From the NCBI RefSeq assembly GCF_031581265.1, contig NZ_JAVLBQ010000007.1, forward strand, positions 11,259-75,258: a stretch of 64,000 nucleotides of DNA, written 5' to 3'. The notes under the pieces were generated by a model. The model saw nothing but the letters and a program-made list of their open reading frames with translations. It had not been told where the DNA came from and did not search any database. Positions 2,603 through 39,914 of this stretch are shown here, piece by piece. Origin of the DNA: Gracilimonas sp. Its GTDB lineage: Bacteria > Bacteroidota > Rhodothermia > Balneolales > Balneolaceae. A program made the position numbers and the translations under genes. Within the stretch, counting starts at the first letter, position 1. Every line of letters begins with the position of its first letter.

Positions 2603-3700
2603 TCAATTGATGATCTTAATCAATTGCTCACAGACTTTGTCCTGATCTTCTTCACTTAGGAAAGGATGCATGGGAAGGCTTAGTACTTCGCGGCTGGCTT
2701 TTTCAGATTTGGGAAAATCGCCGTAATTGTAGCCCAGGTTTTGAAAAACGGGCTGTTCGTGGAAGCATTTAGGGTAGTAGATTCCAACGGGGATGCCAGC
2801 TTCTTTTATTCGTGCCACCACTTCATCTCTGTGCTCTTCATTTACTCGAATGGTGTATTGGGCATAAACATGGGTATTGCCTTCGGCTATTTTTGGGGTT
2901 TTTATCTGTCCTTTTAGCAACTTACTGTATCGGGCTCCGATTTCTCCACGTGTTTGTACTTCTTTATCAAAATGTTCCCATTTGCCTAAAATTACGGCGG
3001 CTTGTAGGGTATCAAATCGGCCGTTTAGTCCAATATGAGTATGGTGGTGTCGCTTTATGCCCCCGTGGGAACGAATGGCTTTCATGATGTCGGCGAGGTC
3101 ATCATCATCGGTGAAAAGTGCTCCTCCATCACCAAAACAACCTAAGGGCTTGGCAGGAAAGAAGGAGGTGCTTCCTATCAATGAGGCGCCACAACTTCGT
3201 TTTCCATTGCGGGTGGCTCCAAAACTCTGGGCGGCATCTTCGATGACGGCAATATCGTGTTTCTCGGCAATAGCGTTTATGCGCTCCAGGGCGGGCATCT
3301 GTCCAAATAAACTGACGGGCATAATGGCTTTGGTATTTTCGGTGATAGCCTCTTCTAACAAATCAGGATCCATATTATAGGTATCTGACTCAATATCGAT
3401 GAATACCGGGTTGGCCCCAACCGCTGCAATGACTTCTGCTGTACTTATCCATGAAAAGGGTACGGTAATAACCTCATCTCCAGCTCCAATATCTAATGCC
3501 CGCAGGGCAATCTCTAGGCTGACAGTCCCGCTGGCTACGGTGATGCAGTGTTTCACTCCGACGTATTCCGCTAATACTTTTTCAAGTTCGTCAATCTCCG
3601 GTCCCATAATGAACTGACCATGATCAACAACTTCTCGCATTTTACGGTCGATTTCGTCTTTGTAGGTCTCGTATTGTGTTTTTAGGTCTATGAATTCCAT
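2603..3700 (-). CDS. DegT/DnrJ/EryC1/StrS-family PLP aminotransferase (WbpE-like UDP-3-keto-sugar aminotransferase)
   Basis: 365-aa ORF with the family-typical length and motifs (HCITVASGTVSLEIAL, SFFPAKPLGCFGDGGA). Clustered with WbpD-, WbpB- and WbpA-like genes. Confidence 0.8.
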   Translation of the reverse strand: MEFIDLKTQYETYKDEIDRKMREVVDHGQFIMGPEIDELEKVLAEYVGVKHCITVASGTVSLEIALRALDIGAGDEVITVPFSWISTAEVIAAVGANPVFIDIESDTYNMDPDLLEEAITENTKAIMPVSLFGQMPALERINAIAEKHDIAVIEDAAQSFGATRNGKRSCGASLIGSTSFFPAKPLGCFGDGGALFTDDDDLADIMKAIRSHGGIKRHHHTHIGLNGRFDTLQAAVILGKWEHFDKEVQTRGEIGARYSKLLKGQIKTPKIAEGNTHVYAQYTIRVNEEHRDEVVARIKEAGIPVGIYYPKCFHEQPVFQNLGYNYGDFPKSEKASREVLSLPMHPFLSEEDQDKVCEQLIKIIN

Positions 3701-4929: not shown

Positions 4930-5879
4930 TCTTTCAGTTCTTGGATGCTTGGATGTACTAACCCTTTAGGATTCTGTGTAAGGTCCATAGTCCGCAACTT
5001 ATGAACCAGTTCAATAGACGGACGGGCATCTTCGATTCCGAAGCCGTTTCCTTTGAGTGTTTCTTTATACACTTTGGTATGCAGATCGGTAAAGCCACCA
5101 CTGAATTCGATTTCATCACCATCAATATCTATGGACCGAAAAGTTCGTTGAGAATTATCAGCATTATTAGGAATATCTTCAGGTTCCAATGACAGATACC
5201 ACTCAACATCAGCATTGGGAAGCTCTAAAAAACCTCCCATTCTATTATTATCTCTAACATGTAGTTCCATAGTTTGGGGTGCCCCAAATAACCACATCAA
5301 CATATCAAAAAAGTGAATACCAATATTGGTACCAATACCTCCTGACTTTTCCTTATCTCCTTTCCATGAATAATGATACCAAGTGCCGCGAGAGGTTATG
5401 TAGGTAAGTCTAATTTTGTTACGTTTCCCACTTTTCTCAACATCAATTTTTTTCTTAAGCTCAATTAATGACGGATGAACCCGAAGTTGAAGAATAGTCC
5501 AAACTCGCTGACCATATTCGTCTTCCAGCTCCTGCAGGATATCTAAGTTCCATGGATTCAATACCAATGGTTTTTCACAAATGGCATCTGCTCCCACACG
5601 CATAGCAAGCCGAATATGAGCATCATGTAAATGATTAGGAGAGCATATTGTCAGATAGTCAACACCTTCCCCATTATCTTCCCTGCGTATTTTTTCAAGA
5701 TGTCGATCAAAACGTTCAACCTCAGTAAAAAATGCAGCCTCTGGAAAAAAACTATCTATTATACCCACGGAGTCATGCGGATCTACCGCAGCAACGAGCC
5801 TGTTCCCGGTATCTTTTATCGCTTTTAAATGTCTTGGTGCAATGTAACCGGCCAATCCGGTTAGCGCGAAATTTTTCAT
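4926..5879 (-). CDS. Gfo/Idh/MocA-family NAD-dependent oxidoreductase, WbpB-like
   Basis: 317-aa ORF with an N-terminal Rossmann fold (FALTGLAGYIAPRHLKAI) and EKP motif (AICEKPL). Cluster context supports the call. Confidence 0.75.
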   Translation of the reverse strand: MKNFALTGLAGYIAPRHLKAIKDTGNRLVAAVDPHDSVGIIDSFFPEAAFFTEVERFDRHLEKIRREDNGEGVDYLTICSPNHLHDAHIRLAMRVGADAICEKPLVLNPWNLDILQELEDEYGQRVWTILQLRVHPSLIELKKKIDVEKSGKRNKIRLTYITSRGTWYHYSWKGDKEKSGGIGTNIGIHFFDMLMWLFGAPQTMELHVRDNNRMGGFLELPNADVEWYLSLEPEDIPNNADNSQRTFRSIDIDGDEIEFSGGFTDLHTKVYKETLKGNGFGIEDARPSIELVHKLRTMDLTQNPKGLVHPSIQELKD

Positions 5880-6087
5880 TGAATAAATATGGTTTATTTA
5901 ATTCTTAAACGTTTCACAATTTACCTTTTCGAAAGTACAAATTCTTGTATCCATTCGTAATAGGGTTTTGTTTGCAGATTTCAAATTTTTATTTGTGTAG
6001 TATTATTATCGTAATTTATTGACCTTTTAGACCTTTTTATGGCTCAAAGAACCGAGGTGCGGATTTGGGGCAAACAAATCTGATCAA

Positions 6088-6138
6088 GGAGATCCCGGAC
6101 CGGATTCCGACAGCTGTCGGGATTATCTGAGATGACGT
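6088..6138 (-). repeat. REP-like hairpin of the CGTCATC...CCGGGATCTCC family (reverse orientation)
   Basis: ggagatcccgg...gagatgacg. The reverse complement matches the family consensus seen at 18441, 19658, 20473 and 26138. Confidence 0.6.
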
Positions 6139-6247
6139 CCCTGTATGATTGTATGATTTGAAATCCCCTTTAAACCACGGATGAGTTCAAAGCATATTTT
6201 TCCTATCTTCAAACCTCTTAAAATTCAACACTCACACATCAGATTTA

Positions 6248-8917
6248 ATGTCTCATAAGACTTCCGCCCAGATTCGCCAAGAATTTTTTGATTTCTTTGC
6301 CGAAAAGAATCACGCTATTGTTGACAGTGCTCCTGTAGTTCCCAAAAACGACCCTACCCTTCTCTTTACTAATGCGGGGATGAACCAGTTTAAGTCTATT
6401 TTTCTGGGGGAGGAAGACGCCCTTCAACATGAAGGAAAAACATGGAAACGTGCGGCGGATACCCAAAAATGTATTCGTGTGAGCGGTAAGCATAATGACC
6501 TCGAGGAAGTTGGCCACGATACCTACCACCACACCTTATTTGAGATGCTGGGGAATTGGTCATTTGGGGATTATTTCAAAAAAGAAGCAATTGGCTGGGC
6601 TTGGGAATTACTAGTGGATAAATGGGGCCTTGATTCTGACCGATTATATGCCACCGTTTTTGAAGGTGATGAAGCTGATGGACTGCCGGTGGATGATGAA
6701 GCCATCGAACTTTGGAAAAGTGAAACGAGTATTGATCACGATCACATCCTGAAGTGTAGTAAGAAAGATAATTTTTGGGAAATGGGTGAAACCGGTCCGT
6801 GCGGACCTTGTTCTGAAGTACACATCGACCTCCGTTCCGATGAAGAACGCAAAAAGAAACCCGGTCGCGATTTGGTGAATATGGACGATCCCCGCGTCAT
6901 GGAGATCTGGAACCTGGTTTTCATTCAGTTTAACAGAAAACCGGATACCTCCCTTGAAAAACTGCCTGCCCAACACGTGGATACCGGAATGGGCTTCGAA
7001 CGAATTTGTGCAGTGCTGCAGGAAAAGACCTCTAATTACGATACCGATGTCTTCACTCCGCTGCTAAATGAAATTTCGGATATGGCGGGACTGACCTACG
7101 GCGAGGATGAAGAAAAAGATATTGCCATGCGGGTTATTTCCGATCACATTCGGGCGGTTACTTTTTCTATTGCAGATGGAGCTTCTCCCGGAAATGATGG
7201 GCGCGGTTATGTGATACGAAGAATTCTTCGTCGGGCTATTAGATATGGATGGGATGTTTTGGATTTCAAAGAGCCCTTTTTCTACAAATTGGTGGATGTG
7301 TTGGCCGAGCAGTTCAAGGATGTGTTCCTGGAAATCAAAGCTCAGAAAGAATATATCGTAAACGTGATCCGCTCTGAAGAAAAGAGCTTCCTGAAAACAC
7401 TGGGACAGGGCATTGAGTTGTTCAATGAGATGGTGGAAGGCAAAAAGAAATTATCCGGAGAGGATGCTTTCAAGCTTCACGATACTTATGGATTTCCTAT
7501 TGACTTGACCGAACTGATGGCCCGGGAACGTGGCGTTGAGGTAGATGTGGAAGGCTTCAACAAGCACATGCAAGCCCAGAAAGATCGTGCTCGCGCTGCA
7601 GGTAAGTTTTCTGTGGATCAGAGTGATTCCAAATCCTGGAATGTGCTTAAAGATACAGACGATTTTGAATTCGTAGGTTATGATGATGCCGAAGCTGAAG
7701 TTGAGATCACTGCATACCGAAAAGAAGGTGAACGTTTTGCACTGCAACTCAATCGCACTCCTTTTTATGCTGAAAGTGGAGGTCAGGTAGCAGACACTGG
7801 TCTTATTACTAATGGTGATGAATATATCAAAGTGGTGGATGTGCAGAAGTCTAACGGGCAGTTCATTCATTATGTGGACAAACTCCCTGAAGACCTTTCC
7901 GGTACCTGGACAGCTTCCATTGATTTTGACCGACGCGTTGAAATTCAAAAACATCACTCAGCTACACACTTGGTTCATGCTGCGCTTCGCGGAATTTTGG
8001 GAGATCATGTGCAACAGAAAGGCTCGCTGGTGGATGAAGAGCATCTGCGGTTTGACTTCTCCCACTTTGAAGCTATGACGGATGAGCAACTGGATGAAGT
8101 GGAGCAGTTGGTAAATGAGAAAATCCAGGAAAATATCCCGCTGCAGGAAGAGCGAAATGTGCCAATAGATGAAGCCAAAGAGCGAGGTGCCATGATGTTG
8201 TTTGGTGAAAAGTATGGTGAGTCCGTTCGGGTAATTACTTTTGACGAAGATTATTCGGTGGAATTGTGTGGGGGTACCCATGTAGGCGCTACCGGTGAGA
8301 TCGGCTATTTCCGGTTCACTAATGAAACTTCTGTGGCAGCAGGAATCCGACGAATTGAGGCGGTTTGTGGAACTCAGGCTGACAAGCTTCTCCGCAATGA
8401 AAAACATTTATTACAACAGGTGAAAGGTGCTATCGGTCAAACCCAGGACTTGGCAGCTGACATCAACAAATTGATCGAGGATAAGAAAGCCCTCGAGAAG
8501 GAGCTCGAAAAAGTACAGATGCAAAACACGGGCGCCAAGCTGGATGAACTCATACAAAGTGCCAGTTCATATGACTCGGGAATCAAACTGGTGAAAGGGG
8601 AAATCTCAGGCGCCGATATGGATGCCCTCAAACAATTAGGCTATGATGGTCTTCAGAAAGTGAAGGAGAATACCGTCATCGTACTTGGTACCAGGGATGA
8701 GGACGAAGGCAAAGTCTATTTGATGGTGGCTGTTACCGACGATCTCATCAAAGGAAAAGGATTGAAGGCCGGGGCATTGGTTGGTCAGCTTGGAAGGCTT
8801 GTTGGCGGCGGCGGCGGCGGTCAGCCTAACTTAGCAACGGCCGGTGGACGTCAGCCCGAAAAACTTGCCGAAGCCTTAGAAAAAGTGAATGAATTGATTG
8901 ATTCAGTAGATAAGTGA
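6248..8917 (+). CDS. alaS: Alanine--tRNA ligase
   Basis: 889-aa ORF with class II AlaRS motifs (FTNAGMNQFK, RVSGKHNDLEEVG, HHTLFEMLGNWSFGDYFK, editing-domain HSATHL, C-terminal GGGGGG). Confidence 0.97.
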   Translation: MSHKTSAQIRQEFFDFFAEKNHAIVDSAPVVPKNDPTLLFTNAGMNQFKSIFLGEEDALQHEGKTWKRAADTQKCIRVSGKHNDLEEVGHDTYHHTLFEMLGNWSFGDYFKKEAIGWAWELLVDKWGLDSDRLYATVFEGDEADGLPVDDEAIELWKSETSIDHDHILKCSKKDNFWEMGETGPCGPCSEVHIDLRSDEERKKKPGRDLVNMDDPRVMEIWNLVFIQFNRKPDTSLEKLPAQHVDTGMGFERICAVLQEKTSNYDTDVFTPLLNEISDMAGLTYGEDEEKDIAMRVISDHIRAVTFSIADGASPGNDGRGYVIRRILRRAIRYGWDVLDFKEPFFYKLVDVLAEQFKDVFLEIKAQKEYIVNVIRSEEKSFLKTLGQGIELFNEMVEGKKKLSGEDAFKLHDTYGFPIDLTELMARERGVEVDVEGFNKHMQAQKDRARAAGKFSVDQSDSKSWNVLKDTDDFEFVGYDDAEAEVEITAYRKEGERFALQLNRTPFYAESGGQVADTGLITNGDEYIKVVDVQKSNGQFIHYVDKLPEDLSGTWTASIDFDRRVEIQKHHSATHLVHAALRGILGDHVQQKGSLVDEEHLRFDFSHFEAMTDEQLDEVEQLVNEKIQENIPLQEERNVPIDEAKERGAMMLFGEKYGESVRVITFDEDYSVELCGGTHVGATGEIGYFRFTNETSVAAGIRRIEAVCGTQADKLLRNEKHLLQQVKGAIGQTQDLAADINKLIEDKKALEKELEKVQMQNTGAKLDELIQSASSYDSGIKLVKGEISGADMDALKQLGYDGLQKVKENTVIVLGTRDEDEGKVYLMVAVTDDLIKGKGLKAGALVGQLGRLVGGGGGGQPNLATAGGRQPEKLAEALEKVNELIDSVDK

Positions 8918-17928: not shown

Positions 17929-18234
17929 TGTAGATGTTAGATAATTCGTTGACACCTACTAGTTAGTTTTTCAAATAATACGTTAAAGTCCTCCCTTGAA
18001 GGAGGTGCCTGACTGAGCAGATGCGAAGTCTGGCGGTGGGTGTTGAAGCTAAGGGCAACACGTCTTTTATTATCTCATTATCTCCATTAATTTTGATTCT
18101 GAGCTGTATCAGACTACATTTTCCTTGGCACCAACACCCCTCAAAATCAGTCAGGAACAACTGACTGATTTATCTCCCCTCCAGGGGAGACTTCACTTTC
18201 CTAAACTTTTGTCAACGAATTATCTAACACCTAC
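17929..18234. mobile_element. 306-bp non-coding MITE-like element with 25-nt TIRs shared with the GIY-YIG cassette
   Basis: TIRs at 17930-17954 and 18210-18234 match 24/25. The interior is a long imperfect palindrome. The element interrupts a CGTCATTGC^GAGG repeat arm. Confidence 0.7.
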
Positions 18235-18342
18235 AATTTCGAGGAAACGTCAAAGTATAATGTCGATTTGGTAAATATAACGACGAAACAATCTCCTGGA
18301 CACAGGCTTGATGTTCACCAACGCGCCCTTAGCAAGTAAGTG

Positions 18343-18440: not shown

Positions 18441-18493
18441 CCGTCATCCCGGAAAAGACGAAATGAAATGGAGTCGCCGATCCGGGATCTCCC
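18441..18493 (+). repeat. REP-like hairpin CCGTCATCCCGG...CCGGGATCTCCC
   Basis: Differs from 26138-26191 at only 4 positions. The terminal arms catcccgg and ccgggatc are complementary. Confidence 0.75.
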
Positions 18494-18514
18494 TAACACC
18501 TAACACCTAACACC
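18494..18514 (+). repeat. Tandem heptamer (taacacc) x3
   Basis: Three exact tandem copies directly abutting the stop codon of the DUF2892 gene. Confidence 0.8.
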
Positions 18515-19657: not shown

Positions 19658-19710
19658 CCGTCATCCCTGACAAGATGCAGCAAAGCGAAATTGCAGAACC
19701 GGGATCTCCC
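19658..19710 (+). repeat. REP-like hairpin CCGTCATCCC...CCGGGATCTCCC
   Basis: Same termini as 18441 and 20473 with a different loop. Confidence 0.65.
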
Positions 19711-19980
19711 TGATTCGGCTTGGGATGTGAAACAGCGAGACAGAGGATATTGCATTGCTATGATTAAACAGATTGCCGCAGGCTGTATTCGCTATCGCTC
19801 AAGTCAGCCTTCGCAATGACGGGTTGGTGGAGGGGTTTTTAAAATACCACTTTAAAACCCATGAAAACCCGTCATTGCGAGGCGGAAACAACATATAACG
19901 TAGGTGGGGATACTCTAACAACGAAGCAATCCCCCTAATACAACTTGTGTTGTTCAACAACGTCCCATTGGTAAATAAAT

Positions 19981-20434: not shown

Positions 20435-20472
20435 CACGTATTGTTCAAAACAACTTCCTATGTAATAATAGT

Positions 20473-20526
20473 CCGTCATCCCGGACAAGTCGGAGCGCAT
20501 GCGTAGACGCCGATCCGGGATCTCCC
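20473..20526 (+). repeat. REP-like hairpin CCGTCATCCCGG...CCGGGATCTCCC
   Basis: Family termini conserved with a loop-specific interior. Confidence 0.65.
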
Positions 20527-20543
20527 TAATACTGGCTACAGTA

Positions 20544-20599
20544 ATTTTAAATGTTAAATGCCTACCATTTAACATTTAAAATTCAACATTTAACATTTC
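20544..20599. repeat. TAAATGTTAAAT palindromic repeat, copy 1
   Basis: attttaaatgttaaatgcctaccatttaacatttaaaattcaacatttaacatttc. A 31-nt stretch is identical (in reverse orientation) to 39849-39879. It overlaps the last 7 codons of the oxidoreductase gene. Confidence 0.75.
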
Positions 20600-21685
20600 A
20601 ACCATTTTCTCCGCACACCCCCAACTCAAAGTAACCCCGGCACCGCCATGGCCATAATTATGAATAATCAATTTGTCGCCCAATTTTTCCTTTTCAAGCC
20701 GAAGTCCATTTTGATTTTTACGCACATAACGATACCCCATTTTTGTAGAAACAGGTTCAAATTCAGCCGTATTAATACCAAAAGAATGCTCTATAATTTC
20801 TTTATTGAGTTGTGATATTTCTACAGGCACATCATGACCATCAATCGAATGTGTTTCCCCTTTATTATCTTCAATATCCCATGAACCGGAATCTGAAAGA
20901 ATGCCCCTTTGCCTACTGCCACCCCAAACCCAACCATCAGATCGTGAGTAACAATACACATCTTGCTGAAAACCACTTTCACTTTGAAAAATATCGCCAC
21001 CCGGTGAGAAATTATAGGAAACTCGTTTTCCTTCCGGGTTTGTAAGAGTGGGTGCTCCAGGGATTTTTAAAATATGTCCCCGATAGATTATGGCATGAGG
21101 GTCATTAAATAATTCAATTGCGCCAATTTCAGTACAGTTGACAATAATTTCAGATGGAAGGGCAGTTAGGTCATCTCGGTTCAGTTTTTGTACTATTATA
21201 TCAATACCGGACTTTTTAACCTCTTCTAACAAGGCAGGGAAGTATTGACTCCAATCAGCAAAATAGCAGTCAAATTTCCAGCCTGTCAAAATCTCGATAT
21301 CGGGATGATGAGGGTAAAAACCTTTTTTAAAGGTAGAAAAGGATTCAAAATGATCCATTTGAGTTGCATAATGAGGGACGTCTCTGTAGTGGCCAAATAG
21401 CTCATAATGCTCGTCAATTTTAACTCCCGGAAATCCTTGTTCATGAAGTTTTTTAAAATAGGCCTTACTGCCGGCGAAAAGTTCCTCCGAAATATCAGAG
21501 CTTAGAGTGTGAGGAATAATGGAAGCAGCCGGTATTAAACTGGCAAATTCAGGATTTTTAGAGACCTGCTCTGGATGCTCTTTGGTGATAATAGTCACAT
21601 TCCACCCCTTGTTATGGAGCAGTAAAGCACAGCTGAGGCCACTGACACCACATCCAATTACAAATACATTTTTTGAATGCTTCAT
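20576..21685 (-). CDS. FAD-dependent oxidoreductase (D-amino-acid oxidase-like)
   Basis: 369-aa ORF with an N-terminal dinucleotide-binding motif (VFVIGCGVSGLSCAL) and a C-terminal HNYGHGGAGVTLSWG motif typical of the DAO family. Confidence 0.75.
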   Translation of the reverse strand: MKHSKNVFVIGCGVSGLSCALLLHNKGWNVTIITKEHPEQVSKNPEFASLIPAASIIPHTLSSDISEELFAGSKAYFKKLHEQGFPGVKIDEHYELFGHYRDVPHYATQMDHFESFSTFKKGFYPHHPDIEILTGWKFDCYFADWSQYFPALLEEVKKSGIDIIVQKLNRDDLTALPSEIIVNCTEIGAIELFNDPHAIIYRGHILKIPGAPTLTNPEGKRVSYNFSPGGDIFQSESGFQQDVYCYSRSDGWVWGGSRQRGILSDSGSWDIEDNKGETHSIDGHDVPVEISQLNKEIIEHSFGINTAEFEPVSTKMGYRYVRKNQNGLRLEKEKLGDKLIIHNYGHGGAGVTLSWGCAEKMVEMLNVEF

Positions 21686-26137: not shown

Positions 26138-26191
26138 CCCATCATCCCAGAAAAGACAAAATGAAATGGAGTCGCCAATCCGGGATCTCCC
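26138..26191 (+). repeat. REP-like hairpin, near-identical copy of 18441-18493
   Basis: cccatcatcccagaaaagacaaaatgaaatggagtcgccaatccgggatctccc. Confidence 0.75.
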
Positions 26192-26333
26192 ACCAAGGCT
26201 CAAACTGCATTAATCCGTCCTTGTGCTAAAAAAAAATTTCCATTAAACTTATCCCAAATATTTCCGTAATTGACTAAATAACTTTAACCAAATTATATTC
26301 AATGAGATCCTATTTACATTTACTGCTTCCTAT

Positions 26334-28938: not shown

Positions 28939-31836
28939 CTAATCTATGATTGCAGAGTAAGCTGCATCGGCAACTTCAGCTCTGATTCGGCTAATTCTAC
29001 TTCCGTACGAGCGGTTAGGGAAGGTACGGTTTGTCAACAAAATAACAGCCATATTCTTCTTCCGGTCAATCCAGAAACTGGTACCTGTAAAGCCAAGATG
29101 ACCAAAAGTATCGGAACCGGACAGACTTCCGGCGGTAGTAAATCCTTCAGCGCTTCTACGGTCAAAACCAAGTCCGCGCCCGCTGTGTTCAGATTGTTTG
29201 GTAGTAAATAGTTCTACGGTTTCACTATCTAAATAACGCTGATCTCCATAGACCCCTTCATTCAAAAGCATAGTTGCGAATTTGGCAATATCTGCTGCCG
29301 ATGAAAAAAGTCCGGCATGTCCGGCAACTCCATCCATATAATATGCCCGTTCATCATGAACTTTGGCATGCACCAAACCGCGATCATATACGGTGTCAAT
29401 TTCAGTGGGAGGGATACGATTTACCAACCATCGACTCTGGCTATGGGGATTGAAGAATGTACTGTACATACCCATGGGATAATAAAATTCGCTTCTGGAA
29501 TACACATCCAATGGTTTACCAGAAACTTCATGGATAATTTCGCCCAATAAAATCATTCCCAAGTCACTGTACACATAATCCGTGCCTGTTTCATAAGTCA
29601 AAGGTTCATTTTTGATGGCATTGATGATTTCCGGTCGGGTTCGGATAGAATCTACATAGACCCTGAAAGGGGGAAGTCCCGATTGATGCAGCAAAATATC
29701 CCGAATCGTAATTTTTCGTTTTTCATCGGTATCAAATTCAGGGAAGAAATAAGCGATTCGGTCATCCAGTGAAAGCTTACCCTCGTCAATTAATTTCATG
29801 GTTGAGGCAGTGGTAGCCATCACTTTTGTTATCGAGGCAAGATCGTAAACATCAGTAGGCTGAACAGCTTCGGTTTTTGTATAATCTTGATAGCCATATC
29901 CCCGATTGTAAGCTAAAACGCCATCCTTCATAATACCAACAACCGCTCCCGGAAATACAGAATCCCTGATGGCATCATTAATGATATCATCAACTTTAAA
30001 CAACTCTTTAGGGTCAAGACCAACTTCCTCCGGTGAGCCATAGCGAAGAGCGGTATGTTCGAAAGAAAGTCCATCGCCAATCTCATATAAATTAGGAATA
30101 TCTATGGGTAGTTTCGCATCAACTTTAGAAGCCCCAAAAAGAGCTGCTGTTACTCCATCGATTTGTTCGTTCGTATTAGCCCAACCCTGAATATGGACAT
30201 CAGCCTCTTCCAGGTCAGATACTATGTAAGGATTACCAAAAGAAACAAGTACTGACTTATTGTTACGATTAAGAACTTGTTTAAGAAAGGCCAATTTCTC
30301 TCCTGTCAGGTGGATAGGTTGGGCAAAACGGAGATAGATAAATGAGCCGATAATGACAAGGTCAGCTTCAGCCGCTTCTCTGAGAATTTCTTGTTTTTCC
30401 TTTTCACTCGTTCTGTTGTCATACACTCTGTAATTGACGTCAGGGTGATAGTCTCTTAATGCTCGTGCAAAAGTGCTTCCTGTCCGGCCATCTTCATCGT
30501 CTGATACAGCGAGCATCATCACCTCAGGATATTCCTTAGCTTGTATAGGTAGAATCTGATCTTCATTCTTCAATACGGAAATGGACTCTCGGGCAATCCT
30601 TGCTGCTTCTGCCTGATGAAAAGACGTATTAATTTTGGTATCAAGATCATTAAGTACGATCTGATTGTTAGAATCGAAAAGCCCATGAATCTGCTTCCAA
30701 ACCATCAATTTGGCAAAGGATTTATTGATCCGTTCCTCACTTAATTCCCCGTTATTTACTGCGGCTTCTACTTCATTAATAGCAGTGAAGGTATCAGGAC
30801 TGATTAGCATGATATCGGCCCCGGCTTTTAAAGCCCTTACCACGGCCTGTCCGGGAGAAAATTGAGACGTAATACCCCGCATATCAAGTCCATCGGTTAC
30901 AACCATGCCGTTAAATTTTAAAGAATCTTGCAGAACATCTCCCAAAATCAGGGAATCTAAGGTTGCCAGAAGGTTCTGTCCGTTATTAATTTTAGGGAAG
31001 GCTATATGGGCACTCATGATGCTGGGCATACCTTTATTGATAGCCGCTCTGAAAGGTTTAAGTTCTACTGAATCAAGACTGCTGTAGTTATGGTCGATGA
31101 TGGGGAAGTCGAGATGTGAATCAACATCGGTATCGCCATGGCCCGGAAAATGCTTGCCGGTAGGGATAATTTGTTCACTTTGAACCCCCTGCATAAAGGC
31201 CGTACCAAAATCACCTACAATATCAGGATCTGCTGAAAAAGAGCGGACATTAATCACCGGGTTCTCGGGGTTGTTGTTGACATCCAGCACCGGGGCAAAT
31301 ATTTGATGGACTCCCAAAGCTTTTGCTTCAATGGCCGTGATTTTGCCCATCATAAAAGCATTTCTCTTATCGCCGGTGGCAGCCACTCCCATAGCCGGAG
31401 TGAATCGGGTAGTTCGGCTGATCCGCATAGCTGCACCAAATTCCATATCCTGGGTGATCCATAAAGGGAATTTTGCCATTTGCTGGAGTTTGTTATTCAG
31501 AACAGCCTGCCCATAAATTTCACCCTGCATAAAAATGAGGCCGCCCACATGGTAATCGGTTACCATTTTCTCAAGTTCATGAAAGCTTTGAGAATATCTT
31601 GGAGTGAATTCACCTTCAGCCCGCACAAAAAATAGTTGACCAATTTTTTCCTTCAGTGGAGTATGAGCGACTAAGGAATCAATATATTTTTCATATTCAT
31701 CGTCAATACTACGTGCAGATATATTATTTTCAGCTTCACCGGAAAAGGACCACGGAAAATTTTGAGCTGATGCAGGATTCGTGAGTAAAAGCGATAAGCT
31801 AAGTAACAGAAAGAAAACGTTGAAGACTGGTTTCAT
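28939..31836 (-). CDS. Fusion protein: glycoside hydrolase family 3 (NagZ-like) N-terminal domain plus serine beta-lactamase/PBP-like C-terminal domain
   Basis: The GH3 region has KHFPGHGDTDVDSH and VVTDGLDM. The C-terminal region has the SxxK motif (ASITKVM) and YSD. I moved the start to MKPVFNVFFLLLSL (signal peptide). Confidence 0.8.
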   Translation of the reverse strand: MKPVFNVFFLLLSLSLLLTNPASAQNFPWSFSGEAENNISARSIDDEYEKYIDSLVAHTPLKEKIGQLFFVRAEGEFTPRYSQSFHELEKMVTDYHVGGLIFMQGEIYGQAVLNNKLQQMAKFPLWITQDMEFGAAMRISRTTRFTPAMGVAATGDKRNAFMMGKITAIEAKALGVHQIFAPVLDVNNNPENPVINVRSFSADPDIVGDFGTAFMQGVQSEQIIPTGKHFPGHGDTDVDSHLDFPIIDHNYSSLDSVELKPFRAAINKGMPSIMSAHIAFPKINNGQNLLATLDSLILGDVLQDSLKFNGMVVTDGLDMRGITSQFSPGQAVVRALKAGADIMLISPDTFTAINEVEAAVNNGELSEERINKSFAKLMVWKQIHGLFDSNNQIVLNDLDTKINTSFHQAEAARIARESISVLKNEDQILPIQAKEYPEVMMLAVSDDEDGRTGSTFARALRDYHPDVNYRVYDNRTSEKEKQEILREAAEADLVIIGSFIYLRFAQPIHLTGEKLAFLKQVLNRNNKSVLVSFGNPYIVSDLEEADVHIQGWANTNEQIDGVTAALFGASKVDAKLPIDIPNLYEIGDGLSFEHTALRYGSPEEVGLDPKELFKVDDIINDAIRDSVFPGAVVGIMKDGVLAYNRGYGYQDYTKTEAVQPTDVYDLASITKVMATTASTMKLIDEGKLSLDDRIAYFFPEFDTDEKRKITIRDILLHQSGLPPFRVYVDSIRTRPEIINAIKNEPLTYETGTDYVYSDLGMILLGEIIHEVSGKPLDVYSRSEFYYPMGMYSTFFNPHSQSRWLVNRIPPTEIDTVYDRGLVHAKVHDERAYYMDGVAGHAGLFSSAADIAKFATMLLNEGVYGDQRYLDSETVELFTTKQSEHSGRGLGFDRRSAEGFTTAGSLSGSDTFGHLGFTGTSFWIDRKKNMAVILLTNRTFPNRSYGSRISRIRAEVADAAYSAIID

Positions 31837-32133
31837 AGAATTATGTGCCGTAAATGATAGTCGTTGACTTTCGAAATGTACGTTATACAAACAGTCTAAA
31901 CCAATGAATTATTTCAAGTTTTGTAAACAGTGAATATGGAAATGGTAGTTCCGGTACAAAGTCGTCTAAGTTTTTGAATATGATTGAAAATGAATGAATT
32001 TATAATTTTGACCTGAGTTCGATTTATATTGATTTGCAAATAACCTTAGTTGTCACTCTTGTAGATATTAGATAATTCGATGACAAAAATGAGGTTGCCC
32101 TAATACTTCCAAAACTAATACTACATTCCCAAA

Positions 32134-32295
32134 AGTTGTCATCCCGAGTGCCCCATAAAAATCAAAAGATTATAATTATATAAGTGAACACGAGGGATCT
32201 CAACGTCTTATTAGGGATGTCGTTCAAACCTTGAGATCCATCGCGTTCACCATAACAGGCCCCATGCAACCCGCCGGGCGCTTTGGATGACAACT
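32134..32295. repeat. Double-stem palindromic element, copy 2 (inside the GIY-YIG cassette)
   Basis: The outer arms are agttgtcatcccgag and ggatgacaact. The inner arms are cgagggatctcaa and ttgagatccatcg. Confidence 0.65.
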
Positions 32296-32306
32296 ATTGA
32301 GGGTAT

Positions 32307-32597
32307 TCAAGAAAACCAATCCTTAGCGAGATCTTCCCAGTTAGGGTTCATACTTTCAATAAGCTCAATTTTCTTTTTTCGACTCCACCCTTTAATCTCC
32401 TTCTCTCTTTGTATAGCATATCCAACATCGTCCGTCCAGTCGTAATAGACCAATGAGTGTAGGTTATATTTTTTGGTAAAGCCTTCTACTAACTTATTCT
32501 TATGCTCATAGATTCTTCGCTCAAGATTACCGGTCATCCCGGTATAGATCATTTTGGAGGTATTACCTAGCATATAAACATAAAAACGCTTTTTCAT
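32307..32597 (-). CDS. Stand-alone GIY-YIG nuclease-domain protein (96 aa)
   Basis: FYVYML....MIYTGMTGNLERRIYEHK...YYDWTDDVGYAIQREKEIKGWSR matches the GIY-YIG/URI domain pattern (GIY...YTG...R..EH...E..IK). Confidence 0.85.
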   Translation of the reverse strand: MKKRFYVYMLGNTSKMIYTGMTGNLERRIYEHKNKLVEGFTKKYNLHSLVYYDWTDDVGYAIQREKEIKGWSRKKKIELIESMNPNWEDLAKDWFS

Positions 32598-32674
32598 ACT
32601 TGTTAGAGCGATGAGAATACAATTGCTTACAAATTTTTTTATTTGTCATCGAATTGCATAACATCTACCACTCT

Positions 32675-32823
32675 GAGCGTACCGAAAGTTTCAATTAGTA
32701 TCGATGTGTAACGCGAAGAGTCTCAAAAGAACACCAACATCGTTAGCATTTAAGGGTTTTGAGATCCTTCGCGTTAAGGAACTATTTTTTTAAAATGCAT
32801 TCTAAGCGCTCAGAATGACAACT
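32675..32823. repeat. Double-stem palindromic element, copy 3 (left arm split by the GIY-YIG cassette; the remainder of the arm is at 32048-32059)
   Basis: The inner arms are aacgcgaagagtctcaaaa (32710-32728) and ttttgagatccttcgcgtt (32757-32775). The right outer arm is gcgctcagaatgacaact (32806-32823). A further outer pair lies at 32011-32024 and 32837-32850. Confidence 0.65.
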
Positions 32824-32890
32824 TCTTGAAACTTTTAATCGAACTCAGGTTTTTACTTTATTTCCAGTTTCTAAATGCTCATTATTGACC

Positions 32891-34897
32891 ATGATCAGTG
32901 ACGAAAAAAAAGAGGAAGTCAGGGCCGCTGCAGATATTGTAGAAGTGGTGCAAGATTATGTTAAACTTAAGCGCTCGGGTAGCAGTTTTGTAGGGTTGTG
33001 TCCCTATCATGATGAAAAAACGCCATCCTTTAACGTCACTCCGAGACTCCAAATTTTTAAATGCTTCGGCTGTGGCGAATCGGGTGATGTATTTAAGTTT
33101 GTGATGGATCAGGAAGGAGTGGGATTCACGGAAGCCATTCGGCAGCTTGCTGAGCGCTATGGGGTGTACATCCCGGAGGAAGAAGATGACGAGCATACGG
33201 AAGATAAACAGCTTCGGGAAGGAATTTTACATGCACTGAAATTTGCAGGTGTTTTCTTCTATCGAAATTTGATTGAAAATTCTGAAGCCGAAAAAGCGCT
33301 CACCTATTTGGAGGGGCGAAGATATTCCGGAAAAGTGTTCAAAAAGTATGGCTTGGGCTACGCACCTTCCGGAGGTGAAGAATTATTGAAAGCCGCTAAA
33401 AATGCAGGCATCGATGAAAAATACCTGGTAGAAGCGGACTTAATAAAACCAAGTAACAGGGGTAGTGGATATTACGATACATTTCGGGGACGATTGATGT
33501 TCCCAATTTTTAATCCCACCGGAAAGGTAATCGCGTTTGCCGGAAGAGTGTTGGGAAATGAAAAAACGGCCAAGTACATCAATTCCTCGCAGACCAAAGT
33601 ATATAATAAAAGTGAAGTAGTGTATGGGGTGAATTTTGCGAAAAATGAGATTCGTAAACACAAAGAAGTAATTCTTGTGGAAGGTTATACGGATGTTATT
33701 ACACTGATGGAGCATGGCATAGGCAATGTAGTAGCAAGCAGTGGAACCTCACTTACTCCGGGACAAATGAAGATCTTGCACCGATACGGAGAACGCATTG
33801 TGATGATATACGACTCCGACAGTGCCGGGCAAACCGCCATGAAGCGCGGCATTAATATTGCACTGGCAGAAGGCATGGAAGTAGAGTTGCTTGAACTGCC
33901 CGAAGATCAGGACCCGGATTCATTCGTCAAACAGTTTGGAAAGGAATCTTTTGAAGACCTTAAAAAAGAAGAAGCCTGTGACTTCGTCGATTTCTTGCTC
34001 ATGAAAGCCGGGGAAGAAGGCCGCCTCGATAAGCCTACTGAGAAACCGAAAGTTATAACTGAGATTTTGGAATCTATAGCCAATATCGAAGATTCCATAC
34101 AGCGACAGGTCTACGTACAATATTTTCATCAGAAAATTCAAAAGTTCCAGAAAGTAAAAGAGAAAGATCTGTTTGAGCAATTAGAGCGCATCATGAATGA
34201 TAAGCGTTGGGAAGAAAAGCGTTCGAAAAGGAGAGAAGAGGCGAGAAAGAAAGTTCAGCAACAAGCTAATAATGACGAGCGGAGTGAGACAGATGAAGAA
34301 CCACCTCACCCCGGCACAAAGACCGCTGCTGTGGCATCAAAAAAGAAGCCGCATTATGAGAAAGAGTTGATTCGCCTGATGATCAGTTATGGGCGCAATA
34401 TGGTGGAATACATATGCTCTTTTACCAATGCCAAACTTTTTGAAGATGATGAACTGCGGATGTTTTACAACGACATCATCGAAAAATATAAAGCCGAAAA
34501 AGACTTTTCCCTGAGTGCGTATTCCGGAGCAGAAGCTCCTTTCCCTCGATTGGTTGGAGATGTGTCCCTTGAGCAGCATACCGCCAGCGATCGGCATGAA
34601 GAGAAAATTGGAATGAAATATGAAAAGGATAAAAATCCCTATAAAACTGCAAAAAGTTCGATCCGTGCAGCCCAGATAAGTTTTTATCGCCGAAAGGTCA
34701 ACGAACTGGCCGACCGGATCGGGAGTGTTAGCGGAGATGAAAAACTTGAGCTGATGAAGCGGCAAAAGGATGTGAAGTCAAAGTTAACAAGAAGAGAAAC
34801 TACGGATCCCGATGACTTATTTCCTGACCCCGAAACAGGCCTTTACGATGAAGTCAATGAAAACGTATTCCAATACAAAATGAAAGGGGATAAGTGA
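32891..34897 (+). CDS. dnaG: DNA primase
   Basis: It has the zinc-ribbon CPYHDEKTPSFNV..FKCFGCG, the TOPRIM motif (EGYTDV, DSDSAGQ) and a long charged C-terminal domain. Confidence 0.95.
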   Translation: MISDEKKEEVRAAADIVEVVQDYVKLKRSGSSFVGLCPYHDEKTPSFNVTPRLQIFKCFGCGESGDVFKFVMDQEGVGFTEAIRQLAERYGVYIPEEEDDEHTEDKQLREGILHALKFAGVFFYRNLIENSEAEKALTYLEGRRYSGKVFKKYGLGYAPSGGEELLKAAKNAGIDEKYLVEADLIKPSNRGSGYYDTFRGRLMFPIFNPTGKVIAFAGRVLGNEKTAKYINSSQTKVYNKSEVVYGVNFAKNEIRKHKEVILVEGYTDVITLMEHGIGNVVASSGTSLTPGQMKILHRYGERIVMIYDSDSAGQTAMKRGINIALAEGMEVELLELPEDQDPDSFVKQFGKESFEDLKKEEACDFVDFLLMKAGEEGRLDKPTEKPKVITEILESIANIEDSIQRQVYVQYFHQKIQKFQKVKEKDLFEQLERIMNDKRWEEKRSKRREEARKKVQQQANNDERSETDEEPPHPGTKTAAVASKKKPHYEKELIRLMISYGRNMVEYICSFTNAKLFEDDELRMFYNDIIEKYKAEKDFSLSAYSGAEAPFPRLVGDVSLEQHTASDRHEEKIGMKYEKDKNPYKTAKSSIRAAQISFYRRKVNELADRIGSVSGDEKLELMKRQKDVKSKLTRRETTDPDDLFPDPETGLYDEVNENVFQYKMKGDK

Positions 34898-39840: not shown

Positions 39841-39845
39841 AACTG

Positions 39846-39914
39846 GAATGTTAAATGTTGAATTTTAAATGTTAAATAGCGGATGCAATTTAACATTTAA
39901 CACTTAACATTTAG
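39846..39914. repeat. TAAATGTTAAAT palindromic repeat, copy 2
   Basis: gaatgttaaatgttgaattttaaatgttaaatagcggatgcaatttaacatttaacacttaacatttag. Confidence 0.75.

Follow-up and report, generated by a model that had tools for sequence, protein, structure and literature searches.

The window analysed here, a stretch of 64,000 nucleotides from Gracilimonas sp. (contig NZ_JAVLBQ010000007.1, positions 11,259 to 75,258 of the forward strand), harbours a 610-bp cassette (32060-32669) that carries the gene of a small GIY-YIG nuclease. The cassette occupies part of the 994 bp that separate a GH3/beta-lactamase gene (28939-31890, minus strand) from dnaG (32885-34897, plus strand). We interpret it, with a probability of roughly 0.85, as a non-autonomous mobile insertion cassette of an IS481-like insertion sequence (IS), moved by a DDE transposase acting in trans, with the GIY-YIG gene as cargo. 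The transposase would recognise both ends of the IS and would insert it directly after GTC, where a hairpin headed by GTCAT has its 5' foot, so that the five bases that follow (AYYCY) are duplicated. The cassette would have moved in trans into the left arm of another copy of this repeat, upstream of dnaG.

The cassette is bounded by terminal inverted repeats (TIRs). The left TIR, TGTAGATATTAGATAATTCGATGACAAA (32060-32087, plus strand), belongs to the same sequence family as the ends of full-length IS copies at loci L004, L001, L018 and others. The right TIR (32642-32669, minus strand), compared with related copies, has its last base mutated, CTACC in place of CTACA. Twenty-seven nucleotides of these ends, 32061-32087 and 32642-32668, form an inverted repeat with 85% complementarity, and neither of its 25-mers found a match in shuffled windows (n=100). 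The first-pass annotation of this DNA, made from the letters alone, had placed a 21/25 inverted repeat within 1 nt of these positions. From tip to tip the cassette reads TGTAG...CTAC(C), as do more than 50 related elements, and the true ends read from these 50+ copies are TGTAG...CTACA. CACTCT is found at 32054-32059 and 32669-32674, directly flanking the inverted repeat on both sides as had been recorded. The sixth base on the right, the C at 32669, closes the right TIR and replaces an original A, and the C on the left side is part of the conserved GTC of the target (32052-32054). The target-site duplication consists of ACTCT, with its left copy at 32055-32059 and a matching right copy at 32670-32674. 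The discrete TIR-bounded unit described in the first-pass annotation is therefore retained, with its length corrected from 609 to 610 bp and its duplication from 6 to 5 bp. Every sequence feature recorded in that annotation was recovered, at the given positions or no more than 1 nt away.

The cassette retains only about 28 bp of each IS end, and the GIY-YIG gene is the sole open reading frame (ORF) with a domain inside it. A tblastn search with the IS transposase found no match, and thus no transposase gene, in the 64-kb window. The loss of the terminal CA-3' suggests that the transposase is no longer able to cut the window copy, which is therefore perhaps immobile now.

The insertion severed a palindromic repeat, of which the left arm AGTTGTCACTCT lies at 32048-32059 (plus strand) and the remainder, beginning with the duplicated ACTCT and closing with the right arm GCGCTCAGAATGACAACT, at 32670-32823 (plus strand). 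Excision of the cassette in silico restores this arm and yields AGTTGTCACTCTGAGCG, which agrees with 32806-32823, read as its reverse complement, at 16 of 17 positions. As had been predicted, the restored element of 161 nt has a fold resembling that of the intact ones (z=-5.2), with the stems GTC-ACTCT/AGAGT-CTCA (5/5) and GTC-ATTCT/AGGAT-CTCA (4/5).

A second copy of the cassette is present in two Gracilimonas-like JGI metagenome contigs (L116/L117), between a lytic transglycosylase gene and recQ. In L116 it occupies 2906-3515 and has the same order of end, conserved upstream motif, gene, palindrome and end. The DNA identity between the two copies is 86-90%, and it starts and stops exactly at the tips of the TIRs. 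Around the L116 copy lies a 5-bp duplication of its own, GCAAT, and after it GAC, which is the same target in the other orientation. Its GIY-YIG protein is the closest homologue of the window protein (91% identity). The cassette has thus been transposed as a unit, which bears out the earlier proposal of a mobile cassette as far as past mobility goes.

The same observations bear on the possibility of a chance juxtaposition, in which a resident GIY-YIG gene happens to lie between two solo IS ends that stem from separate insertions and are unrelated to each other, and the unit was never mobile. Some loci would fit such a coincidence, since the IS often lies within about 300 nt of GIY genes (L095, L068, L006, L004) and does so as well at L097, where a related GIY gene has a single recognisable TIR. 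However, the 610-bp unit at another locus with a different duplication refutes the chance explanation; the perfect 5-bp duplication around the unit, the palindrome arm restored at 16 of 17 positions and the orthologous dnaG spacer without the unit in three relatives also speak against it, and we regard its probability as negligible.

Further copies of the TIRs, whose search had been among the proposed checks, were found at more than 115 loci in a genome-collection scan with one genome per species and the pattern GTAGRTRTTANNNAATTCGNTGACA. The counts of full-length copies, flanks and hosts given here and below are among the matches listed in that scan. The hosts include Balneolaceae (Balneola, Gracilimonas, Rhodohalobacter), Dehalococcoidia, several Patescibacteria lineages, Alpha- and Gammaproteobacteria including Legionella steelei, Flavobacteriales, an actinobacterium and others. 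With mismatches allowed, 32 loci possess inverted end pairs 1042-1049 bp apart, each with one ORF of 323-342 aa inside. The autonomous element is about 1045 bp long, with ends of 26 nt, TGTAGATGTTAGRTAATTCGTTGACA (as a search string, TGTAGRTRTTANNNAATTCGNTGACA), and a single gene encoding a DDE (rve-fold) transposase. Full-length copies in other Balneolaceae are those at L004 (Balneola; transposase gene at 5563-6549), L072, L082 and L112. A Balneola metagenome-assembled genome, OZ244140.1, contains at least four copies with identical transposases, plus one MITE (miniature inverted-repeat transposable element). The IS family is also abundant in metagenomes, typically on contigs of about 1040 bp, as expected because the repeat breaks assemblies.

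The transposase matches the Pfam families rve/rve_3, and its best NCBIfam match by far is the IS481 family (NF033577, E=5.6e-56), although its 190 bits fall short of the cut-off of 224. Among annotated plasmid genes, the nearest encode IS481-family transposases with about 27% identity. Because the score is under the cut-off and the identity is so low, the predicted assignment of the parent IS to the IS481 family is approximate. The end of the transposase gene varies among copies. In L001 (1645-2838) and other Dehalococcoidia copies, some transposase frames have no stop inside the IS and run through its right end into the flank (397 aa in L001), and in the Balneola copies the stop codon TAA falls within the terminal repeat.

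Perfect 5-bp duplications surround 27 of the 32 full-length copies, and two more have duplications matching at 4/5 positions. GTCAYYCY terminates 74 of the 174 flanks and the complementary GRRAT another 52, and most of the others are near variants. The insertion point is therefore between GTC and AYYCY, with AYYCY duplicated. This tabulation of flanks supports the earlier view that the cassette targets GTCAY arms of repeats resembling repetitive extragenic palindromic (REP) sequences. Empty sites, whose tabulation had also been suggested at that stage, were reconstructed in Dehalococcoidia and read CGTCATTCCCGCGAAAGCGGGAATCC, the published NTS motif (PMC11893778). The sequence GTCATTCCCGCGAAAGCGGGAATCC is predicted to serve as a target of the IS. 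The transposase gene runs opposite in direction to the interrupted GTCAT hairpin in 24 of the 26 full-length copies with perfect duplications (L001-L114), the two exceptions both coming from one Balneola genome. This orientation bias indicates that an asymmetric target is recognised, and suggests strand- or structure-specific target capture.

Elements without any nuclease gene behave in the same way. The window contains a second element of this IS, a non-coding MITE of 307 bp (17929-18235), with 26-nt TIRs (96%) and the flanks ATTGC/ATTTC (4/5); the same TIR pair had been annotated there, with the element one base shorter (306 bp, to 18234). ORF-less elements with these ends have also duplicated their target at L089, L104 and L023, and target and duplication are no different in elements whose sole gene is a truncated transposase gene.

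The first-pass annotation had put forward the GIY-YIG protein itself as the mobility nuclease of a new TIR-bounded class, cutting the TIRs or the GTCAY arms and driving insertion. Indeed, no other ORF lies between the TIRs, the gene is intact and evolves under purifying selection, its family is tightly linked to the GTCAY-headed repeats that are the insertion target, and a second lineage with a 42%-identical GIY-YIG gene shares the TIRs (L024, L065, L097). However, the TIRs belong to an IS with its own DDE transposase. More than 30 copies with this transposase and without a GIY-YIG gene, as well as the ORF-less MITEs, have the same TIRs, target and 5-bp duplication. The 5-bp staggered duplications and TG...CA ends also point to DDE transposition, of which both are hallmarks (IS3/IS481 families). 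The characterised Ssn relatives of the protein, introduced below, cleave single-stranded DNA (ssDNA) only and do not join DNA (PMC11893778). Association with the TIRs, whose absence from homologues in relatives had been named as a finding that would count against the proposal, came close to that outcome: TIRs are absent at 89 of 91 loci selected by their GIY gene, and the two that carry IS ends are the same cassette. The nuclease gene is therefore dispensable for these elements and as a rule not linked to them; most TIR-bounded elements lack it. Since the DDE transposase accounts for ends, target and duplication, and the ORF-less copies have target duplications too, the transposase is very probably the mobility enzyme, and a role of the GIY-YIG protein in insertion is very improbable. 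Nor does the architecture call for an undescribed class of element, as had been supposed, since it fits the known category of mobile insertion cassettes and MITEs.

The passenger gene (32307-32597, minus strand) encodes the annotated 96-aa single-domain GIY-YIG protein, with a match to PF01541 (E=1.3e-12) over residues 5-76. We found 3172 homologues, with 60-70% identity across phyla, and the residues Y6, Y8, Y18, R28 and E65 are conserved (22-23 homologues aligned). The public annotation starts the gene at Met9 (88 aa; P0001), whereas the conserved N-terminal YVY ('GIY') strand requires the ATG at 32597, which gives 96 aa. An exact-sequence look-up of the 96-aa protein gave no match, because the databases carry the 88-aa version from Met9. 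Between the window gene and that of L116, dS is 0.49 and dN/dS is 0.08, and the cargo gene has therefore been kept functional; the passenger gene is under purifying selection. Its 5' region (32606-32633, minus strand) comprises, at 32606-32622, a degenerate repeat arm, GAGCGATGAGAATACAA, and, at 32620-32633, a conserved upstream motif, CAATTGCTTACAAA (reverse complement TTTGTAAGCAATTG). The upstream motif, TTTGTAAGGAATT, is also present 5' of the GIY genes in L116, L024, L095, L097, L004 and L122, and is possibly the promoter of the passenger gene.

The sole relative of the protein in the PDB is the UPF0213 protein 1zg2 (E=0.0014). Ssn nucleases are single-domain GIY-YIG proteins of about 94 aa (CDD cd10448; Chenal et al. 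2025, PMC11893778), which bind NTS/SRM hairpins beginning with CGTCAT and cut the adjacent ssDNA; NTS/SRM repeats are found near 71% of ssn genes (PMC11893778). By its size, domain and repeat association, as described in that paper, the passenger protein is probably a site-specific ssDNA nuclease of the Ssn family, and by analogy it probably has ssDNA nuclease activity. The GIY-YIG gene of L083 belongs to a different subfamily and is accompanied by different repeats.

Inside the cassette, next to the gene, lies a complete palindromic element (32134-32295), which is also present in the L116 copy. It folds as the internal double-stem palindrome reported earlier (z=-5.9) and consists of an inverted pair of SRM-like hairpins, GTC-ATCCC...GGGAT-CTCA and GTC-ATCCA...TGGAT-CTCA. 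Each half of the palindromes has the form GTC-5mer-loop-5mer'-CTCA, with five different 5-mers and 29 of 30 positions paired. From these covarying stems it follows that the palindromes are inverted pairs of long-loop SRM-like hairpins. Searches in Rfam gave no credible match for the palindromes or the TIRs, the only hit being a miRNA family with E=0.31.

The link between these repeats and the nuclease family was assessed in 80 metagenome loci picked by protein only (L127-L206). GTCAYYCY occurs 6.73 times per kb at up to 250 nt from the gene and 0.63 times per kb beyond, a 10.7-fold enrichment. One or more copies lie within 250 nt at 75 of the 80 loci, and at 60 of the 80 there are copies on both sides, usually in the order plus upstream and minus downstream. 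The window copy has a full repeat pair 3' of the GIY gene and a degenerate arm 5' of it. GIY homologues without TIRs lie among the same palindromes in L118, L121, L122, L124 and L126, and GIY genes of Gracilimonas and Balneolaceae lie between complete palindromes of about 150 nt. In Alkaliphilus metalliredigens a 28-nt inverted repeat, GTCATCCTGAGCAAAGCGAAGGATCTTA, brackets the GIY ORF, and in an Anaerolineales genome only 15-16 nt separate the arms from the start codon and the stop codon of the GIY gene. The nuclease family is associated with GTCAY repeats. The link between nuclease and GTCAY arms drawn in the first-pass annotation was thus right, but for another, published reason, namely that Ssn nucleases go together with SRM/NTS hairpin repeats (PMC11893778).

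This association also accounts for the genomic neighbourhood of the IS, which is found near ssn genes because it homes to the repeats that flank them. Such homing would have led to repeated landing beside ssn genes, and on at least two occasions it would have enclosed one. The second of these lineages, L024 (with the deletion derivative L065), has its 42%-identical GIY-YIG gene inside IS ends, with 26-nt hairpin repeats around the gene.

Several points weigh against this interpretation of cassette and cargo. The transposase stays below the NCBIfam IS481 cut-off (190 versus 224 bits) and is only about 27% identical to named members. The full-length IS is absent from the window, and the autonomous copies among the matches listed in the scan belong to other members of the Balneolaceae and to other phyla. 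The window and L116 copies have one mutated terminal base each, at opposite ends, which makes current mobility doubtful, and both copies may be immobile now. As a point against Ssn membership, the published SRM pattern, HGTCWYN(0-2)YYVSBRHN(0-5)WNVSBRGN(0-2)RNCYNB, has 0 matches in the window and 0 in the 80 homologue loci. The same pattern does match the canonical NTS and 65 sites in the loci selected by their IS; the published motif under-detects long-loop and GAG-type variants. Finally, mobilisation in trans does not explain by what route the gene and the palindrome came to be placed between two 28-bp ends.

On that route, an alternative holds that an ssn gene with its flanking hairpins (NTS-ssnA-NTS), independently mobile or homing, entered an IS481-like MITE, and that the chimera was then moved by the DDE transposase. 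Short TIR-bounded elements of five phyla have two GTCAY hairpins in inverted orientation close inside their IS ends, and full-length IS copies have no such pair. In L121 an ssn gene lies between near-identical repeat copies, in L122 tandem duplications include the 3' end of the gene, and the NTS-ssnA-NTS architecture was likened to an IS by the authors who described it (PMC11893778). Nonetheless, no mechanism is known for insertion driven by Ssn, no GIY remnants were found in the other MITEs, and the distance between TIR and inner repeat varies from 6 to 46 nt, which argues against a defined entry site. We consider this origin possible, if rather unlikely. It concerns only how the cassette arose, and is compatible with DDE-mediated mobility.

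The short elements in question are L089, L087/L104, L023, L019 and L024/L065, in which the inverted GTCAT hairpin pair lies 6-46 nt inside the IS ends. Their hosts are Paceibacterota, Patescibacteria, Gamma- and Alphaproteobacteria and Balneola. When other TIR-bounded MITEs were searched with a profile for GIY-YIG genes in decay, none turned up beyond L024 and L065, and a descent of all such MITEs from ssn cassettes is thereby left unsupported. An origin as a composite transposon, in which an IS copy stood on either side of the gene, was rejected too, since the observed structure, with complete inner repeats that retain GTC and lie 6-46 nt inside the TIRs, is not derivable from it. The recurrent nesting of hairpin pairs in MITEs may reflect an invasion of MITEs by units bounded by hairpins, or a functional tie between the two systems.

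That the IS481-like element and the Ssn/repeat system are functionally coupled, and not merely co-located, seems to us improbable. If they were, the IS would land on the GTCAT hairpins in a specific orientation, possibly on hairpins that Ssn has extruded or nicked, and the cassette, with an ssn gene and a repeat pair as conserved cargo, would bring to other loci or genomes a nuclease that maintains or spreads the sequences the IS needs, a mutualism of two elements. Such coupling would explain the hairpin pairs just inside the IS ends in MITEs of five phyla.

The interrupted palindrome and the cassette are enclosed in an outermost layer, a composite of 840 bp (32011-32850) bounded by a perfect 14-nt inverted repeat, ACCTGAGTTCGATT (32011-32024 and 32837-32850). 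In three related Gracilimonas genomes (DnaG 86-87% identical; the closest DnaG orthologues overall are 86-88% identical), the orthologous GH3/beta-lactamase-dnaG spacer is 229-235 bp long and the whole block 32011-32850 is absent. Presence and absence in relatives, a comparison proposed earlier, is thus observed for the cassette-bearing block, and the short spacers represent the empty site of the whole 840-bp composite, not of the cassette alone. The block forms a third, outer insertion layer, with TTT/ATTT possibly as its candidate duplication. The locus orthologous to the L116 insertion site is not in the window, which consequently offers no empty site for the L116 copy.

Similar to known mobile insertion cassettes and MITEs, such as the IS231-derived MIC231, the Tn3-family cassettes of Xanthomonas (PMC4337579) and the Aeromonas qnrS2 cassette (PMC5444012), the present cassette has two IS-type TIRs, no transposase gene, a passenger unrelated to transposition, a duplication of the length made by the parent, and probably mobilisation in trans. 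It differs from them in that its parent is IS481-like, that the cognate repeats of the passenger nuclease are the target of the parent, and that one repeat pair is carried too. With the IS481 family, which has TGT...ACA termini and duplications of 2-15 bp, mostly 6 (PMC10045372), the parent shares a single-ORF DDE/rve transposase of about 330 aa, a length of about 1 kb, the TGT...ACA termini and a short fixed duplication. However, its duplication is 5 bp, in contrast to the 6 bp of most members, and it has a strict sequence and orientation specificity for a hairpin repeat.

IS elements that target REP sequences have reportedly been treated by Tobes and Pareja in 2006. Near-exclusive insertion into a short, repeated, hairpin-forming intergenic sequence, a 'safe haven', is shared with the REP-targeting IS1397/ISKpn1 (IS3 family), ISPpu9 and IS621 (IS110 family) (PMC8450116, PMC12288879), and the IS1202 subgroup, which targets XerCD sites, has the same habit (bioRxiv 10.1101/2022.12.17.520857). 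Unlike these elements, the present IS has a transposase of another lineage, its target is a GTCAT-headed, Ssn-related hairpin and not a RAYT-type REP or a dif-like site, and the same ends and target are conserved over many phyla.

The Ssn and NTS/SRM system (PMC11893778) has in common with the present one a single-domain GIY-YIG protein of about 94-96 aa, dispersed repeats, and inverted flanking hairpins, usually on both sides, which start with GTCAT and end in ...AT-C. In the window, by contrast, the repeats have long loops (about 42-48 nt), form inverted pairs of about 150 nt that resemble REPINs and do not match the published SRM pattern, and the gene lies inside an IS-derived cassette, a context absent from that paper. 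The RAYT/REPIN systems (PMC3116915, PMC3337134) likewise consist of a single-copy nuclease gene flanked by its palindromic repeats in inverted doublets. However, the enzyme here is a GIY-YIG protein and not an HUH/Y1 transposase, and the repeats are known here as associated with the gene only. Literature searches joining GIY-YIG with REP, RAYT, REPIN or MITE, or made on UPF0213/COG2827/YhbQ or on the arm sequences, returned nothing relevant.

All parts of the system are of known kinds, while their combination and the SRM-specific IS lineage appear undescribed in the searchable literature. This applies to an IS481-like lineage that homes to Ssn-associated hairpins at GTC/NNNNN with a strong orientation bias and has ends shared from Patescibacteria to relatives of Bacteroidota, and to a transposon-borne spread of ssn genes. 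The idea of a GIY-YIG transposon, though tempting, is largely refuted. Three layers of selfish or semi-selfish DNA are nested in a single 1-kb spacer. The covarying 5-nt stems and long-loop doublet repeats widen the published definition of the Ssn motif, which misses a whole subfamily, and the 26-nt end sequence together with the 5-bp duplication rule would permit automatic masking of many unrecognised MITEs.

Additional repeats were observed in the window and in a related genome. A second family of GTCAT-headed hairpins, CCGTCATCCCGGA-loop-TCCGGGATCTCC, is present at 18441-18494, 19658-19711, 20465-20532 and 26139-26192, and is probably another SRM-like type in the same genome. Together with longer repeats of 75-92 nt (18343-18417/19981-20055 and 13068-13158/20023-20113), it is clustered between 18 and 26 kb. 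In another Gracilimonas genome (GCA_040220595.1; L122, 2790-3660), the last 30 nt or so of the ORF of an ssn homologue and a complete palindrome are repeated in three to four tandem copies downstream of the gene, which hints at replication slippage or recombination at the repeats. The window also contains an AT-rich 34-nt inverted repeat, ATTTAACATTTAAAATTCAACATTTAACATTTCA (97%), with its arms 19 kb apart (20567-20600 and 39844-39877), and a 34-nt hairpin (91%; 34892-34925/35011-35044) directly downstream of dnaG.

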